DNA from: Candidatus Saccharimonadales bacterium
GTDB lineage: Bacteria; Patescibacteriota; Saccharimonadia; Saccharimonadales; UBA10212
Direction of reading: 5' to 3'
Length of the DNA: 64,000 nucleotides
Assembly: GCA_049521895.1 (NCBI GenBank)
Contig: JBEKOJ010000001.1
Coordinates: 162,717-226,716 of the forward strand
The notes beneath the pieces are model-generated. The model saw nothing but the letters and a program-made list of their open reading frames with translations, was not told the origin of the DNA and made no database searches. Positions 10,907 through 57,030 of this stretch are shown in pieces (the stretch's first letter is position 1; each line of letters opens with the position of its first letter). The position numbers and the translations under genes are program-made.

Positions 10907-10930
10907 ATTATCTCTTGAGCATTATTTTCT

Positions 10931-10958
10931 ATAAAAAGACCTTGGCGATTTACCAAGG
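10931..10958 (-). terminator. Putative intrinsic attenuator hairpin in the rplJ leader
   Basis: The minus strand reads CCTTGG-taaatcg-CCAAGG followed by TCTTTTTAT, about 25 nt upstream of the rplJ ATG. Confidence 0.45.
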
Positions 10959-11094
10959 ACTACAGAAGATGTCTGCACAACAATACATTGCGCGTTAACC
11001 TCGGTAGCAGATTAAGCCCGCTTGTCGCGGGCAGCTACTGTCTTTGGCAATCTAATAGTAGATTAGCACAACCTGCAACTTCTTACAAGTCCTA
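10959..11094 (-). promoter_or_regulatory. Candidate L10(-L12) autoregulatory leader
   Basis: This 188-nt untranslated gap holds nested stems (GTAGC..GCCCGC-gacaa-GCGGGC..GCTAC) upstream of the attenuator. The position matches known rplJ leaders, but identity was not verified. Confidence 0.35.
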
Positions 11095-19121: not shown

Positions 19122-19196
19122 TGGCAGGGGCACGTGGAATCGAACCACGATCTAGGGTTTTGGAGACCCTTATACTAGCCGTTGTACTATGCCCCT
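19122..19196 (-). tRNA. trnW: tRNA-Trp (anticodon CCA), CCA end encoded
   Basis: Manual cloverleaf: acceptor AGGGGCA/TGCCCCT, anticodon arm AGGGT-CTCCAAA-ACCCT, T arm CGTGG-TTCGATT-CCACG. Confidence 0.92.
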
Positions 19197-19224
19197 TCGT
19201 CGGAATCGACATGTTAGAATTATA

Positions 19225-19422
19225 CCTTAAAATTCTCTTGTGCCCGTTGCAGCCAAGGGAAAGGTAGTAGCACCGGTCCCGCCAAAGGCGGGATTCGGAT
19301 CTACTCCAAAAGGTGCGTTGGCGAATGCAGCCGCGGAGGCAAAATTGTGTTTATGTAATTTTGCTGAGCAGCGAGGGAGGTCGCGGAGCAACCAGGAAAA
19401 CCGCATGGTTGTCCTTCAAGTT
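19225..19422. ncRNA. G+C-rich structured intergenic element, copy Z (paralog of 24726-24892 and 55952-56200)
   Basis: Contains hairpins CCGGTCCCGCC-aaa-GGCGGGATTCGG and GCAAAATT-gtgtttatgt-AATTTTGC, followed by GAGCAGCGAGGGAGGTCGCGGAGCAAC. Strand and function are unknown. Confidence 0.35.
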
Positions 19423-19626
19423 TTACCTGCGGGGCTTTACTTCGTTGCGACCCAAATTTTTCTTTGTTTCTGATTGTTCAGCAATAGTATGTTTTATCGG
19501 GCAATATTTCTTAAGCTCCACTTTATCAGGCGTATTCATAGTGTTTTTAGTTGTATAGTAATGGCGTTGCCCGCAAGCTTCACATACAAGCCCAACAATT
19601 TTTCGCTTCTCGCTTTTTTTAGCCAT
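19423..19626 (-). CDS. rpmG: 50S ribosomal protein bL33
   Basis: MAKKSEKRKIVGLVCEACGQRHYYTTKN..KKYCPIKHT fits the bL33 pattern. I chose the ATG at 19626. Confidence 0.85.
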   Translation of the reverse strand: MAKKSEKRKIVGLVCEACGQRHYYTTKNTMNTPDKVELKKYCPIKHTIAEQSETKKNLGRNEVKPRR

Positions 19627-19808
19627 AACCAATGGATACTAACAGATAACAGAGGGAAAAACAACACCCACAACTCAGAACCAGCTTATATTGTGCAGTA
19701 CGACTGGTCGCACAGTCTGGCTATATAGGAGCCCACCGAAAAAAATATGATGTTGTTACAATACGCTTTGGCAATGCAAAACTAAGGGATAAAATAGTAG
19801 GGTAAGTT

Positions 19809-19885
19809 GCCGAGGTAGCTCAGTTGGCTAGAGCACGTCATTGGTAATGACGAGGTCACGGGTTCGATTCCCGTCTTCGGCTCCA
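19809..19885 (+). tRNA. trnT: tRNA-Thr (anticodon GGU), CCA end encoded
   Basis: Acceptor GCCGAGG/CTTCGGC, anticodon arm CGTCA-TTGGTAA-TGACG, T arm CACGG-TTCGATT-CCGTC. Confidence 0.92.
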
Positions 19886-33413: not shown

Positions 33414-33435
33414 TACGCAACCTCCGGTTGCTTTA

Positions 33436-33515
33436 GTAAAAAGTAAAAAGTAAAAAGTAAAAAGCTAACAGCGGCATATGGTGGCTGCTTGTTGCCTTTT
33501 ACTTGTTGCCTGTTG
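33436..33515. repeat. Low-complexity quasi-palindromic spacer repeat, family C, with (GTAAAAA)x4
   Basis: GTAAAAAGTAAAAAGTAAAAAGTAAAAAgctaacagc faces gctgcttgttgccttttacttgttgcctgttgc. Confidence 0.65.
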
Positions 33516-33538
33516 CTAAAAATGCAAAGCATTTTTAG
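33516..33538. other. A/T hairpin CTAAAAATGC-aaa-GCATTTTTAG overlapping the rpsH stop codon
   Basis: A perfect 10-bp palindrome, the same as at the rpoA stop except the loop is complemented. Confidence 0.6.
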
Positions 33539-33924: not shown

Positions 33925-34040
33925 ACGCACCTCCGGTGCTCAATTTTCAATTTACAATTATATAGCTTCAAGCCAGGCTGGCTTTTATTTTTAAGGCTGG
34001 CCAGCTTGGTTTTGGCATATAATGCTTCCTTATCGGTCAC

Positions 34041-34138
34041 ATTATCAATTTTCAATAATTTAGCATTTAGTAATTGGCCATTGGTAAATGACAAATGAGA
34101 AATTAATGTGAAATGGTAAATGGGATATGGTAAATGGG
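34041..34138. repeat. Low-complexity quasi-palindromic spacer repeat, family A (about 85% identical to 27941-28038)
   Basis: Reads attatcaattttcaataatttagcatttagtaattggccattggtaaatgacaaatgagaaattaatgtgaaatggtaaatgggatatggtaaatggg. Confidence 0.7.
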
Positions 34139-34159
34139 ATGACATAGTCATTTTATCTC

Positions 34160-34429
34160 CTACCAACTGCTCTTAGTTACGCCCGGTATCTCACCCTTGG
34201 AAGCGTGCTCACGGAAGGCGATACGGCTTAAGCCGAACTGACGCATATAACCGCGCGAGCGGCCGGTCTCGGCACAGCGGTTCTTGCGGCGGGTAGGGCT
34301 GGAATTGCGCGGTAACAGATGAAGACCTTCATAATTGCCGGCGGCCTTAAGCTCAGCCCGCTTAACGGCATACTGGTCGATCATCCTTAGGCGCTTGGCA
34401 TCGCGCGCTAATACAGATTTCTTGGCCAT
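34160..34429 (-). CDS. rpsN: 30S ribosomal protein uS14 (long, non-zinc type)
   Basis: [13 protein letters not shown].. with the C-terminus ..[21 protein letters not shown] is canonical uS14. Confidence 0.95.
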
Positions 34430-34562
34430 TATTTGCGCCCTCCGGGCTTATGAAGACAACCTACGGTTTTCCTCATCGAACCTTTTGGAATAAATCCAAA
34501 TTCGCCTCGCGAACCGGTTATACTCTTTTCCCTTAGGTTAACTACTACTGTAAATGATTTCA
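34430..34562 (-). promoter_or_regulatory. Structured intercistronic leader upstream of rpsN (paralog of the rplB leader)
   Basis: The minus strand reads TAAGGGAAAAGAG..hairpin..CGATGAGGAAAACCGTAGGTTGTCTTCATAAGCCCGGAGGGCGCAAATAATG. Compare 39349-39460. Confidence 0.45.
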
Positions 34563-35207
34563 TTATTTACTCTTACTTTCAAGTGACTTGTGCTGCCCAT
34601 TCGACGTGCTCAGGGCACTCTGAGGGCTACTCGAAGGGTGAGGTTTCTCGAAAGGCAGGCCAAACTTAGTTAGTAAGGCTTTGGCCTGTTCGGGATTTTG
34701 CGCCTGGATAATAAACGTCACTTGCAATCCATGCGCTGTGGCGGTCTCTTCAAAGCTAAGCTCTGGGAAAACCGACTGGTCTACCAGCCCAAGACTGTAG
34801 CTGCCTTGTTTATCAAATGAACTGGTGCTCACGCCGTGAAAGTCACGCAAGCGGGGCAGGACAATATTGATCAGCCGGTCAGCAAACTCATACATTCTAT
34901 CACCTCTGAGCGTAACTTTCAGCCCTATTTTATTTCCTTCGCGTAACTTAAAGCTGGCGATAGACTTTTTCGCGGTGGTTTCCACGGGTTTTTGGCCAGT
35001 AATTTTAGCCAAAGTGTTGGCTGCCACCTCTAGCAAGCGCTTTTCGTCCTTGGCCTTGCCCACACCTGCACTGACTACAATTTTCTCCAAGCGCGGAGCT
35101 TCATGGATATTTCTGAGCCCGAGCTCGTTTTTAAGCTCGCCAGCCCAAACATCTTTATAGCTGGTGCTCAAACGCGGCTTATAAGCAGGTTTGGTTACGG
35201 TAGCCAT
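34563..35207 (-). CDS. rplE: 50S ribosomal protein uL5 with about 35-aa C-terminal tail
   Basis: ..LRNIHEAPRLEKIVVSAGVGKA.. and ..LRGDRMYEFADRLINIVLPRLRDFHG.. are canonical uL5. Confidence 0.95.
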   Translation of the reverse strand: MATVTKPAYKPRLSTSYKDVWAGELKNELGLRNIHEAPRLEKIVVSAGVGKAKDEKRLLEVAANTLAKITGQKPVETTAKKSIASFKLREGNKIGLKVTLRGDRMYEFADRLINIVLPRLRDFHGVSTSSFDKQGSYSLGLVDQSVFPELSFEETATAHGLQVTFIIQAQNPEQAKALLTKFGLPFEKPHPSSSPQSALSTSNGQHKSLESKSK

Positions 35208-35230
35208 TAGACGCTCCCTTTAGTCGCTTT

Positions 35231-35305
35231 AGGTGACAGGTTGTAGGTTGTAGGTGACAGTTTAGTTACAGTTTTTGTAACCTGTAACCTGTAACCTGTA
35301 ACCTG
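35231..35305. repeat. Low-complexity quasi-palindromic spacer repeat, family D, with (GTAACCT)x4
   Basis: aggtgacaggttgtaggttgtaggtgacag faces GTAACCTGTAACCTGTAACCTGTAACCT. The arms pair as AGGU/ACCU blocks on the mRNA strand. Confidence 0.65.
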
Positions 35306-35326
35306 ATGATGAGTGGAACGAATCAT

Positions 35327-38514: not shown

Positions 38515-39348
38515 TTATCTCCTCTTCCCCTGGTGGCGGGTTCTTACGATAAACTTACTGCTAATATTGCGGCGGCGGGTTTTATACCCAAGGGTTTTCT
38601 GGCCCCAAGGTGTCCGGGGGTCTTTTTCAGTACCGTGCTTACCCTCGCCACCACCATGCGGATGGTCAGCGGCGGCCATGACTACACCGCGGACCGTTGG
38701 CCTGATACCCATGTGACGCTTGCGGCCGGCCTTGCCGATTTGGATATTTTGATGCTGCTCATTGCCCACGGTGCCAACAGAGGCCATACAGTCAACGTGT
38801 ATCATTCTAATTTCTCCACTAGGTAATCGCACTTGGGCATATTTTTCTTCTTTTGCTATAAGTTGTGCGCCGGCCCCGGCGGTGCGGGCCAGTTGGGCGC
38901 CCCGGCCTGGCTGAAGCTCAATAGCATGTATAGTTGTACCAGTTGGGATGTTTTTAATTGGCAAGCGGTTGCCCCGTTCGATGGAGGCTTCTTCGCTCAC
39001 ATTGACCTTTCGGCCAACTCGCATCCCTTTGGCGGCTAAGACGTAGTGGTGGTTGCCATCTTGGTCAATGACTCTGGCAATTCTAGCGCTACGGTTGGGG
39101 TCGTATTCTATATGTTCAATGGTCGCGCTTGTACCCACGGACGGCTTAAAATTAACCATGCGGTAATACCGTCTGGCGCCGGCGCCGCGATGACGGGTGG
39201 TAATTCGCCCCTGGTTATTGCGGCCCACAGAACCTTTTTTAATGCGAATTAGGCTGCGCAGCGGTTTATCGGTAGAAATGCCAGCAAAATCCTGGCTGCT
39301 CATGCCGCGGCGACTTGGAGTTGTAGGTTTGTAAGCTTTAACGGCCAT
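38515..39348 (-). CDS. rplB: 50S ribosomal protein uL2
   Basis: MAVKAYKPTTPSRRGMS.. and ..HPHGGGEGK.. are canonical uL2. I chose the ATG at 39348. Confidence 0.96.
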   Translation of the reverse strand: MAVKAYKPTTPSRRGMSSQDFAGISTDKPLRSLIRIKKGSVGRNNQGRITTRHRGAGARRYYRMVNFKPSVGTSATIEHIEYDPNRSARIARVIDQDGNHHYVLAAKGMRVGRKVNVSEEASIERGNRLPIKNIPTGTTIHAIELQPGRGAQLARTAGAGAQLIAKEEKYAQVRLPSGEIRMIHVDCMASVGTVGNEQHQNIQIGKAGRKRHMGIRPTVRGVVMAAADHPHGGGEGKHGTEKDPRTPWGQKTLGYKTRRRNISSKFIVRTRHQGKRR

Positions 39349-39460
39349 TATTTGCGCCTCCGGCTTATAAGACAAACCTGGCGGTTTTTCTCATCGCGCC
39401 GGCAAAATAAAATACATTTTGTCGGGCTGCTCTTTTCCCTATAGCTATTCAGCTGCATCA
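39349..39460 (-). promoter_or_regulatory. Structured intercistronic leader upstream of rplB (paralog of the rpsN leader)
   Basis: The minus strand reads TATAGGGAAAAGAG..CCGACAAAAT-gtatttt-ATTTTGCCGG..CGATGAGAAAAACCGCCAGGTTTGTCTTATAAGCCGGAGGCGCAAATAATG. Confidence 0.45.
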
Positions 39461-39802
39461 TTATTTCTTCCCCTTAGTTTCTGGTTTAGTCTCGGGCTCT
39501 TCGACAGCGGCAAAAATCGGCAGCTTATCGCCTTCTTTCAGGACGACGTAAGCTTTGCGGAAGTCAGAACGCCGCGCTCTATGCGACACCCGGCCTCCAC
39601 GGCGGTATGTTCTTTTAGTCTTAGCGGGCGCACCAGTGATGCGTACTTTTATAACCGAGACACTGTATTGTTTGGCTACGGCATCTGCTACGCTAAGGCT
39701 GTTTACTCCGCTCGGGACTTCGAATAGATAGGTATTGAGCTCCTCGCTTAGGGAATAGGCTTTTTCGCTCAGACGCGGTTTAAGCACGACCGATTTATTC
39801 AT
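39461..39802 (-). CDS. rplW: 50S ribosomal protein uL23
   Basis: ..VLKPRLSEKAYSLSEELNTYLFEVPSGVNSLSVADAV.. is uL23, and the gene sits between rplD and rplB. Confidence 0.92.
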   Translation of the reverse strand: MNKSVVLKPRLSEKAYSLSEELNTYLFEVPSGVNSLSVADAVAKQYSVSVIKVRITGAPAKTKRTYRRGGRVSHRARRSDFRKAYVVLKEGDKLPIFAAVEEPETKPETKGKK

Positions 39803-55769: not shown

Positions 55770-55886
55770 GCGAAAGCAATACTCCCTGCTTTTATTTAAT
55801 AAACGCCTTAGCGAAGCCCACTACGTTCGGCGATGCAAATTGTATTTAATACAGCAAGCACCAAAGTACACTACTTCTTAGCCTAT

Positions 55887-55915: not shown

Positions 55916-55951
55916 GTTATTCTGGGAAAAAGTGTTGTAGAATATACGCTA

Positions 55952-56200
55952 GACTATCTTATTCGGAGACCGTTCACGCGCGGAGGGTGCCTCGCCTGAG
56001 CCGCTTAAACATTATAGCGTCTCCGCGGCGCACCGCACCGGCTCCACTTGGGGTATGGTGAATCTCCGAAGTAAGATAGTCGTCGCTTCCCGCAGGTAAA
56101 AGTTTGAGTAAAGCGCCAGGCGGCGCCGAGAAGCAAGCGAAACGTATTGTGATATACGTTGAGCGAGCATCGCAGGTGGCAACAATGCGATTTGCCAAAA
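55952..56200. ncRNA. G+C-rich structured intergenic element, copy X
   Basis: An 18-bp closing stem GACTATCTTATTCGGAGA (55952-55969) / TCTCCGAAGTAAGATAGTC (56063-56081) is followed by the shared module GCGCCAGGCG..AACGTAT-tgtgat-ATACGTT..GAGCGAGCATCGCAGGTGGCAAC..TGCGATTTGCCAAAA. Confidence 0.4.
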
Positions 56201-56810: not shown

Positions 56811-56838
56811 TTTATAAAAATTAGCACTCGTAAGTCAA
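56811..56838 (-). promoter_or_regulatory. clpP promoter TTGACT-N16-TATAAA, 8 nt from the ATG
   Basis: The minus strand reads cTTGACTtacgagtgctaattttTATAAActatatgcATG. The -35 box and spacer lie inside the CIRCE palindrome. Confidence 0.5.
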
Positions 56839-56847
56839 GAGTGCCAA
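56821..56847. promoter_or_regulatory. CIRCE-like inverted repeat (HrcA operator) TTAGCACTC-N9-GAGTGCCAA
   Basis: Matches 17 of 18 arm positions of the CIRCE consensus TTAGCACTC-N9-GAGTGCTAA, with exact 9-nt spacing. Confidence 0.65.
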
Positions 56848-56999
56848 CACATGTTGCAGATAGGGTTGGTCTGGGTAGGTTTAGCTTGTTTGATTTTTCC
56901 GAAGCCCTGAGCGAGATGTATCCGTTGATACATTGAGCTGGACTGGAGGAAAAAGCAGCAAGATAAGCCTGTTCCAGGCAGGCCTAGCGGTGATATGTG

Positions 57000-57030
57000 T
57001 TAGTACTCTTGGCTTGGTCAAGAGTGCCAA
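57000..57030. repeat. Degenerate second copy of the CIRCE-like element (13-nt spacer)
   Basis: TTAGTACTC-ttggcttggtcaa-GAGTGCCAA shares the exact 14-mer GTCAAGAGTGCCAA with 56834-56847. It lies directly after the tig stop. Confidence 0.45.

Follow-up and report, generated by a model that had tools for sequence, protein, structure and literature searches.

The 226-nt spacer between rpmG and the tRNA-Trp gene of a Candidatus Saccharimonadales bacterium contains a structured element, Z, probably a copy belonging to a seemingly undescribed family of small, non-autonomous mobile structured elements. We analysed it within a 64,000-nt stretch of the genome (the window; 48.6% G+C, with genes almost all on the minus strand). 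The first-pass annotation of this DNA had described Z as a copy of a G+C-rich, repeated structured element shared with two further inserts, X (55950-56200) and Y (about 56850-57030). A repeated non-coding element is indeed present, but the copy set is a different one: the paralogues of Z in the window are S and T, both on the minus strand at ribosomal-protein operon junctions. The G+C content of Z, 54%, is modestly enriched over that of the window.

The spacer (19197-19422) is bounded by rpmG (19423-19632, minus strand, from an open reading frame call) and tRNA-Trp (19122-19196, minus strand, from a tRNA call). Its length is unusual, as had been claimed: in four syntenic relatives (L091, L092, L093, and L095), whose L33 proteins are 82-87% identical to that of the window, only 30-42 nt separate the rpmG stop from tRNA-Trp. 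Those short spacers are essentially a TATAAT box alone. In the window, the box lies on the minus strand at 19219-19224, 22 nt upstream of the tRNA-Trp 5′ end, exactly where the first reading had placed it; it is the probable −10 box of tRNA-Trp, is host sequence outside the element, and is kept at the same place in relatives without the Z insert. A comparison of this spacer across relatives, proposed earlier as a check, gave a divided answer: the element is absent from the four relatives above, and its structure is conserved in two others, L180 and L146 (L33 about 85% and, for a partial match, about 78% identical to the window). Both share one arrangement, consisting of tRNA-Trp (minus), TATAAT (minus), a canonical 95-nt element (plus), 5 nt, and the rpmG stop codon. 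The three Z-site copies (window, L180, and L146) show compensatory differences in the helices P2, P3, and P4 described below; they may descend from one old insertion followed by losses, or the site may be a hot spot hit repeatedly. The same strain is represented by seven contigs with an identical spacer, and Rfam finds no match in it, even at E ≤ 10. Close by, tRNA-Thr(GGT) (19809-19885) is on the plus strand here and runs in the same direction as rpmG in L091, L092, and L095, and the tRNA-Trp of the window differs from theirs in every arm, which, on sequence grounds, seems to point to a local rearrangement or replacement around Z.

Two relatives (L009 and L010) carry a glycoside hydrolase (GH15) gene that converges on rpmG and overlaps its stop codon from the opposite side, so that the spacer might be taken for the decayed remnant of such a gene. 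We consider this hardly credible, as a tblastn search with the GH15 protein finds nothing in the spacer, and the region matches a non-coding covariance model.

The family was recovered with the search pattern AAAACCGYAN{0,1}GGTTGTCYN{0,1}TCA, derived from the 3′ hairpin common to Z and S and run against JGI metagenome contigs. At least 117 metagenome stretches matched, and the 120 pattern matches in the returned loci make up the sample examined. One architecture recurs in nearly all of the 120 matches listed: a purine-rich single-stranded motif, (U)AGGGAAAGGUAGUAG, then a helix P2 enclosing P3 and P4 (P4 often reading GGAUUYAUUCC), then GUU and a final helix, P5. P5 reads GAAGGAAAACC-GUA-GGUUGUCCUUC followed by A, has 11-12 bp with an internal A.G mismatch, and ends in ...UCA. 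The element is non-coding and about 75-110 nt long, the canonical form being ~95 nt. There is also a short form with one internal hairpin (AGGGAAAAGAGCAGCC...GCGAUGAGGGAAAACC...), a minimal form in contigs of 28-38% G+C (AGGGAAARUGUGUGAGAGAAAACCGYAGGUUGUCUUCA), and, in contigs of 61-70% G+C, a form with a P4-like hairpin upstream of the motif. In five of the latter contigs (L127, L129, L138, L141, and L205), the element sits inside a larger conserved locus, with the hairpin GGCCGGAUUCACUCCGGCC upstream and a GGGGCCGAGCCUUGCGGCCCGGCCCC hairpin downstream.

Covariation supports this fold. The test set was 26 long-form sequences, S and the 5′ half of Z among them; 95% of its cells are paired and 14 of 28 pairs change on both sides, values reached by 0 of 500 shuffles; when the 3′ partners are slid by 1-3 columns, pairing falls to 36-56%. 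Because the search pattern fixed P5, its invariance in the pattern-found sample proves nothing. Among members found by covariance model alone, P5 covaries too, and its A.G mismatch is mostly kept. For single canonical members, the lowest-energy fold coincides with that of the family, the 5′ motif staying unpaired. We attempted to choose the acting strand from wobble pairs, but G-U against A-C counts (37 and 21 of 2022 cells) were too weak to decide; the acting strand and molecule were therefore inferred from the purine-rich motifs and the genomic context.

The pairs are 94% Watson-Crick, so both strands can fold, and this bears on a further explanation, in which the insert serves as minus-strand host sequence, in the form of a structured 3′ untranslated region of rpmG, a terminator, or an insulator from the tRNA-Trp promoter. 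The minus strand does fold well (z = −4.05), P5 in reverse complement starts 4 nt past the rpmG stop, and tRNA-Trp retains its own TATAAT. Nevertheless, there is no U-tract and no terminator-like site (0 on either strand), relatives manage with 30-42 nt, and the purine-rich motifs, together with most family contexts, make the plus strand of Z the element strand, leaving a minus-strand role improbable.

No description of the family was found. Rfam 15 gave no match on Z, S, or ~27 loci with canonical members at either the gathering score or E ≤ 10; across these sequences and the window, it recognised tRNAs, rRNAs, and the L10 leader alone (the last at 10923-11065 in the window). Full-text literature searches with core strings and for RNA motifs of bacteria in the Candidate Phyla Radiation (CPR) and of DPANN archaea, MITEs (miniature inverted-repeat transposable elements), and rRNA insertions returned no account of it, an earlier description beyond the searchable library being possible. 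Other candidate identities were set aside. A phage origin was rejected after the hairpin pattern found no match in 2.9 million viral contigs, and rRNA mimicry after a canonical member showed no significant similarity to 23S, 16S, or 5S rRNA. A hammerhead-like reading of GAUGAG...GAAA failed on the order of its parts, with the Rfam models silent.

Z carries each part of this architecture on the plus strand, antisense to the neighbouring genes. Model R1, which comprises the AGGGAAAG motif, the three-way junction, and P5 and was run on the window with filters off, matches Z at 19253-19344 (57.1 bits, E = 6e-12), with P5 in addition at 19394-19415. The 5′ single-stranded motif, near-invariant in the family (RGGGAAAGGUAGUAG), occupies 19255-19270 in the covariance-model alignment (motif AAGGGAAAGGUAGUAG), where Z reads AAGGGAAAGGTAGTAG. 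The three-way junction with its covarying pairs follows at 19270-19316 and is formed by P2 (GCACC/GGUGC, 19270-74 with 19312-16), P3 (UCCCGCC/GGCGGGA, 19277-83 with 19287-93), and P4 (UUCGGA/UCCAAA, 19294-99 with 19305-10, one C.A mismatch). The hairpin CCGG-TCCCGCC-aaa-GGCGGGA-T-TCGG, noted in the first pass, is present at 19273-19298. P5 (AGGAAAACC-GCAU-GGUUGUCCU, 19394-19418) matches the pattern GGAAAACC-loop-GGUUGUCC exactly, has the conserved A.G mismatch, and finishes in ...UUCA; this 3′ end lies 4 nt from the rpmG stop codon (19423-19425).

Between the junction and P5, Z has a 73-nt extra arm in the P5 5′ strand (19321-19393) that is specific to it. In BLAST comparisons with ~25 canonical members, only positions 30-96 and 170-201 of Z are covered, leaving a 73-nt gap, and the arm also stands out in the alignment with L180 and L146, which lack it. 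The outer pairs U19319-A19418 and G19320-C19417 are able to close it. A second hairpin that had been pointed out, GCAAAATT-N10-AATTTTGC, lies in this arm at 19339-19364; it occurs once in the window, with 0 occurrences expected in shuffles. Extra hairpins in the P5 5′ strand are also found in other members (L104 and L192). The similarity of the arm to the short forms T and L098 is marginal (p about 0.02), and we make no claim that it is a nested short-form element.

At its left edge, Z has a 5′ flank or extension of its own (19225-19254, plus strand), running from promoter-like boxes to the conserved motif and delimited by alignment with L180 and L146, whose elements begin at AGGG after a different 5′ flank. 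On the plus strand, a consensus scan finds a putative promoter, TCGACA-16-TAAAAT (19206-19233, 10/12 matches), overlapped by a candidate extended −10 box read directly as TGTTAGAAT (19212-19220). The repeat unit had been suggested to include a promoter-like box; boxes do lie on both strands at this edge, but they are flanking host sequence and not part of a shared unit. The other Z-site copies also have a −10-like box upstream on the element strand (TGTTATACT, 7 nt before the copy, in L180; TATAGA in L146). From boxes of this kind Z could be transcribed as an antisense RNA of ~170-200 nt.

The fold of Z has moved away from that of its family. Its P4 loop, AUUYAUU in the family, has changed to AUCUACU, which is complementary to its own 5′ motif, and an alternative long hairpin, the one noticed in the first reading, is consequently the lowest-energy fold. 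The family fold lies 19 kcal/mol above it, and the alternative persists after removal of the extra arm. Given this departure, Z looks like a drifting antisense copy of the family.

The two paralogues show how such copies sit in operons. Copy S is a 126-nt insert at rplE/rpsN (34435-34560, minus strand; R1 match at 34447-34537, 73.5 bits, E = 7e-16) flanked by an 8-bp duplication, AAATAATG, at 34561-34568 and 34427-34434. The plus strand of Z (19254-19325) aligns with the reverse-complemented rplE-rpsN spacer at a Smith-Waterman score of 59 (null 18 ± 3); the alignment is colinear over the entire spacer, the hairpins of the two copies differ in a compensatory manner, and it extends to the rpsN-upstream spacer of a relative, L098. 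S brings its own GGAGG ahead of the rpsN ATG. We also considered S as a conserved rpsN leader. This was rejected: the genes abut at an empty junction in L097, L103, and L223, and a duplication flanks the insert. Copy T is a 105-nt insert of the short form at rplW/rplB (39354-39458, minus strand; R1 match at 39363-39443, 16 bits, E = 0.05) with the same 8-bp duplication at 39459-39466 and 39346-39353; the coordinates of both duplications were checked. At S and at T alike, AAATAATG is the junction where the stop and start codons of the two host genes overlap. The empty rplW/rplB site reads GGATAAATAATGGCGG in L221, and L223 is empty too. Pfam identifies the genes flanking T as L23 and L2, and T brings a GGAGG ahead of the rplB ATG. 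The longest rplB reading frame (38515-39375) begins inside T. Translation most likely begins at the ATG at 39346-39348, after the GGAGG of T, so that automatic annotation may over-extend L2 in the window. Three other spc-operon junctions (33414-33534, 33931-34159, and 35208-35326) that are tight in relatives hold here not a structured element but short tandem repeats (TTTTTAC and GGTTACA, four copies each, and CCATTTACC-like units).

The wider set of copies shows further signs of mobility. Model searches found copies at rpoB/rpoC in L019 and at L15/secY in L223, and the pattern scan found others ahead of the genes for L18 (in L116) and L22 (in L136). Copies are flanked by direct duplications of local target sequence with lengths of 8, 9, 13, 15, 15, 17, 18, 21, and 22 bp, rather than at one fixed length, and a repeat of at least 11 nt abuts ...UCA in 6 of the 120 matches listed (0.13 expected). 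Single 23S genes carry three copies in both orientations (L104 and L198), elements form head-to-head pairs (L118 and L137), and copies lie just before 23S (L118), between 23S and 5S (L122), and after a group I intron core (L115, L142, and L194). The window holds 3 copies in 64 kb, against 2 in 660 kb of other Saccharibacteria loci. The family is MITE-like in being small, non-coding, multi-copy, and polymorphic for presence or absence.

Placement relative to downstream genes bears on a role as RNA. Twelve of the 120 matches listed have a same-strand tRNA starting 0-20 nt downstream, mostly at 5 nt (0.17 expected), and 21 have any tRNA within 150 nt (4.7 expected). In the contigs of low G+C, 1 nt separates the end of the element from the AUG of the next gene; by Pfam, these genes encode L24e, S10, aIF5A, SRP54, and a proteasome subunit, which marks these contigs as archaeal. 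Bacterial copies precede genes for L22, NusG, and SSB (Pfam) and, presumably, for L18, HrcA, and the ATP synthase epsilon subunit, as we read their N-termini. Ahead of the minimal form in four of the low-G+C archaeal contigs (L110, L128, L184, and L217) lies one more conserved domain, with a pair of interleaved helices (CGAUUUC/GAAAUCG and UCGAGUGCU/AGCACCGA) as well as a TATA-like AAATAAAT box; this unit of about 100 nt would be a 5′ untranslated region of ribosomal-protein genes.

These placements raise the question of whether the family works primarily as a cis-acting RNA, forming a structured 5′ leader on transcripts of tRNA, rRNA, and ribosomal-protein genes, with mobility secondary. Such an RNA may serve as a processing signal, a small ribozyme that sets the downstream 5′ end, a stabiliser, or an attenuator (P5 with a U-rich tract), and Z would be an independent small RNA gene read from a promoter of its own. 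From CPR bacteria to DPANN-like archaea, the unpaired motifs are invariant, copies stand in the sense orientation about 5 nt from 12 tRNAs and 1 nt from archaeal AUGs, and short-form copies provide GGAGG and the start context. Moreover, the fold of the Z-site copies is kept through compensatory changes, promoter-like −10 boxes precede them on the element strand, and A/U-rich tracts follow many stand-alone copies. However, copies occur in both orientations in 23S genes and antisense to their neighbours, Z included; presence is patchy even among close relatives; and target duplications lie at the flanks. No terminator-like site follows Z, no Rfam ribozyme, riboswitch, or leader similarity was found, and the fold of Z has itself drifted away. 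As an autoregulatory leader in particular, the element is at odds with the empty rplE/rpsN junctions, with the unrelated genes it precedes, and with the lack of rRNA similarity. We regard a primarily cis-acting RNA as possible, although we lean against it.

The grouping of Z with X and Y did not survive comparison. Same-orientation Smith-Waterman scores among the three are at the shuffled level (z = 1.1, −0.9, and 1.0), no BLAST repeat links them, and R1 with filters off has no match at X or Y. The module said to be shared, an AT-rich hairpin followed by TGAGC, lies in Z inside the 19321-19393 arm, which L180, L146, and the canonical members lack. The similar strings reported beside two of the inserts are present (gttAGAATTATAc in Z and gttgTAGAATATAc in X, at 55934-55947). 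One G+C-rich unit with an AT-rich hairpin, TGAGC, and a promoter-like end box could be argued for from (T)GAGC after each of the three AT-rich hairpins (whose sequences differ), from the boxes adjoining X and Z, and from a 13-mer, TTTTACCTGCGGG, with a weak local alignment (z = 4.5), between the minus strand of X and the 3′ end and flank of Z. In contrast, the box beside X, GTTGTAGAATATAC, is part of a conserved rpoB-upstream sequence (ATTCTACAACAC) kept in relatives without X, and the Y-like inserts of L030 and L065 differ in their core and bring a 14-bp flanking repeat of their own. We therefore judge a common X/Y/Z unit very improbable.

X and Y have distinct characters of their own. Our comparison covered 80 clpP loci in GTDB species genomes, of which about 55 are from Saccharibacteria. 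X, an insert of ~250 nt between the clpP stop and the rpoB promoter, occurs in none of the 55 relatives examined; it has a branched fold closed by a 16-bp stem (55954-55970 with 56063-56079), and its minus-strand 13-mer (56089-56101) recurs in the 3′ flank of Z at the end of rpmG. The Y insert (56848-57016) lies between tig and a CIRCE site and is flanked by a 14-bp direct repeat, GTCAAGAGTGCCAA, at 56834-56847 and 57017-57030. Among the 80 loci, Y-like inserts occur only in L030 (83-323, two in tandem) and L065 (upstream of clpP). They have a covarying hairpin flanked by GAGC...GAGC, with no R1 match, and may constitute a second family of small mobile elements. The CIRCE-type inverted repeat TTAGCACTC-N9-GAGTGCCAA (56821-56847), which we take to be the HrcA operator consensus, lies just upstream of clpP and is conserved in about 50 Saccharibacteria loci. 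Downstream of the TTGACG-17-TACAAT promoter, at about 55810-55885 on the minus strand, rpoB has a conserved 5′ leader, AAGAAGUAGUGUAC ... GUAGUGGGCUUC, found in more than 15 Saccharibacteria relatives without an Rfam match, and a candidate for a new cis-regulatory leader.

We next compared the Z family with known systems. The MITE-like Correia/NEMIS, RUP, ERIC, and Rickettsia palindromic elements are likewise small, non-coding, multi-copy, patchy, and intergenic, with target duplications (general background and a MITE survey, PMC11602168). Like them, the new element would be co-transcribed with neighbours and could supply expression signals. In contrast to the Correia/NEMIS type, it shows no terminal inverted repeats, its duplications of 8-22 bp are not fixed in length, and it forms a three-way junction with conserved unpaired motifs instead of a simple palindrome. 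Its core also occurs in both bacteria and archaea at 29-70% G+C, and it has no known partner transposase. Repetitive extragenic palindromes and their mosaics (REP/BIME) are mobilised by REP-associated tyrosine transposases (RAYT, Y1 type); they are single hairpins of 20-40 nt, create no target duplication, and are restricted to lineages with a RAYT gene. The new element resembles them in being extragenic and structured, in occurring in both orientations and in inverted pairs, and in that, where REP has GTAG beside its palindrome, it has GGUAGUAG before P2 and GUA in the P5 loop; its structure is a three-way junction, unlike their short single palindrome.

Among RNA-level systems, a survey of rRNA insertions in CPR bacteria reported many short 23S insertions not classed as introns and described no such core (PMC11270868). 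Members of the family are similarly found inside 23S genes of CPR-like contigs (L104, L198, and L194), where a host helix closes around them; the likeness was drawn without mapping onto the numbering of that survey, and the new element also occurs at tRNA and protein-gene junctions. S and T resemble ribosomal-protein leaders, such as the Rfam L10 leader, as structured RNAs directly upstream in the sense orientation. The family differs from these in preceding many unrelated genes, tRNAs, and rRNAs, in missing from the same junction in close relatives, in its target duplications, and in showing no rRNA mimicry. Finally, plant mitochondrial t-elements and mascRNA act as tRNA-like processing signals, and small ribozymes occur next to tRNAs. 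The shared trait is a conserved hairpin whose end stands a constant few nucleotides ahead of a tRNA 5′ end or start codon, and by this analogy P5 could mark a cleavage site. The loop of P5, however, has 3 nt, a T-loop is lacking, and the Rfam ribozyme models give no match.

Taken together, a mobile element with a selected fold is the most economical explanation. In this scheme, copies would insert at intergenic junctions, strongly favouring the vicinity of genes for tRNA, rRNA, and ribosomal proteins or of other highly expressed genes, and insertion would duplicate 8-22 bp of the target, legible where the event is recent enough. Copies lying along the host transcript would become its 5′ leader, some bringing their own Shine-Dalgarno sequence. 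Z would have inserted 4 nt past the rpmG stop, between rpmG and the tRNA-Trp promoter and antisense to both, and would later have gained its 73-nt arm and the P4-loop change, the two changes that would make the alternative long hairpin lowest in energy and give Z its drifting appearance. The conserved fold may be a module for mobilisation or for harmless residence in transcripts.

Several observations weigh against mobility as the whole explanation. We identified no transposase, reverse transcriptase, or autonomous partner (RAYT genes were not searched for), and inspection of the delimited copies S, T, L116, L119, L190, and L210 showed no terminal inverted repeats. Flanking repeats of variable length are atypical of prokaryotic DNA transposons, and some of them recur genome-wide (AAATAATG junctions and tRNA D-arm or T-arm segments), so that short-homology recombination could mimic target duplication. 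At Z itself, no clear duplication is legible in the flanks, only a possible TACCT. The extreme conservation of unpaired sequence across bacteria and archaea points to an RNA function beyond mobility, as do the fixed spacing to tRNA 5′ ends (mostly 5 nt) and archaeal starts (1 nt) and the compensatory changes among the Z-site copies. With G-U pairs rare and weakly favoured over A-C, the functional strand could be either one and the molecule RNA or single-stranded DNA. Moreover, the sample was drawn by a 20-nt P5 pattern, which biases both the apparent invariance of P5 and the mix of contexts. The mobile-element and functional-RNA readings are not exclusive, in that a harmless or useful mobile element would show both sets of properties.

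A further, unlikely proposal combines the two: the element would be a catalytic or enzyme-recruiting RNA that moves via an RNA intermediate, a retro-element of ultra-small bacteria and archaea resembling the short interspersed elements (SINEs). It would enter abundant transcripts, or highly transcribed DNA, near genes for tRNA, rRNA, and ribosomal proteins, and copying back into DNA would leave duplications that vary in length. Self-processing out of host transcripts would then define tRNA leaders and leaderless archaeal mRNAs.

If Z is, as we favour, one copy of a mobile structured family, an abundant and strongly covarying RNA or DNA structure is absent from the curated RNA libraries. The questions it would raise are which enzyme in prokaryotes mobilises an element of 95 nt whose target duplications vary in length, what role the invariant motifs play, and why the distances to tRNA 5′ ends and archaeal start codons are fixed. 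Annotation pipelines would extend or mis-start genes across the element, as with rplB over copy T, and the family would supply a marker for strain-level insertion polymorphism. It would mean, moreover, that the str/S10/spc, rpoBC, tRNA, and rRNA loci of CPR bacteria, DPANN-like archaea, and the source organisms of some unidentified high-G+C contigs have been colonised by such elements, which would account for puzzlingly long spacers in ribosomal-protein operons and for short insertions in CPR 23S genes.

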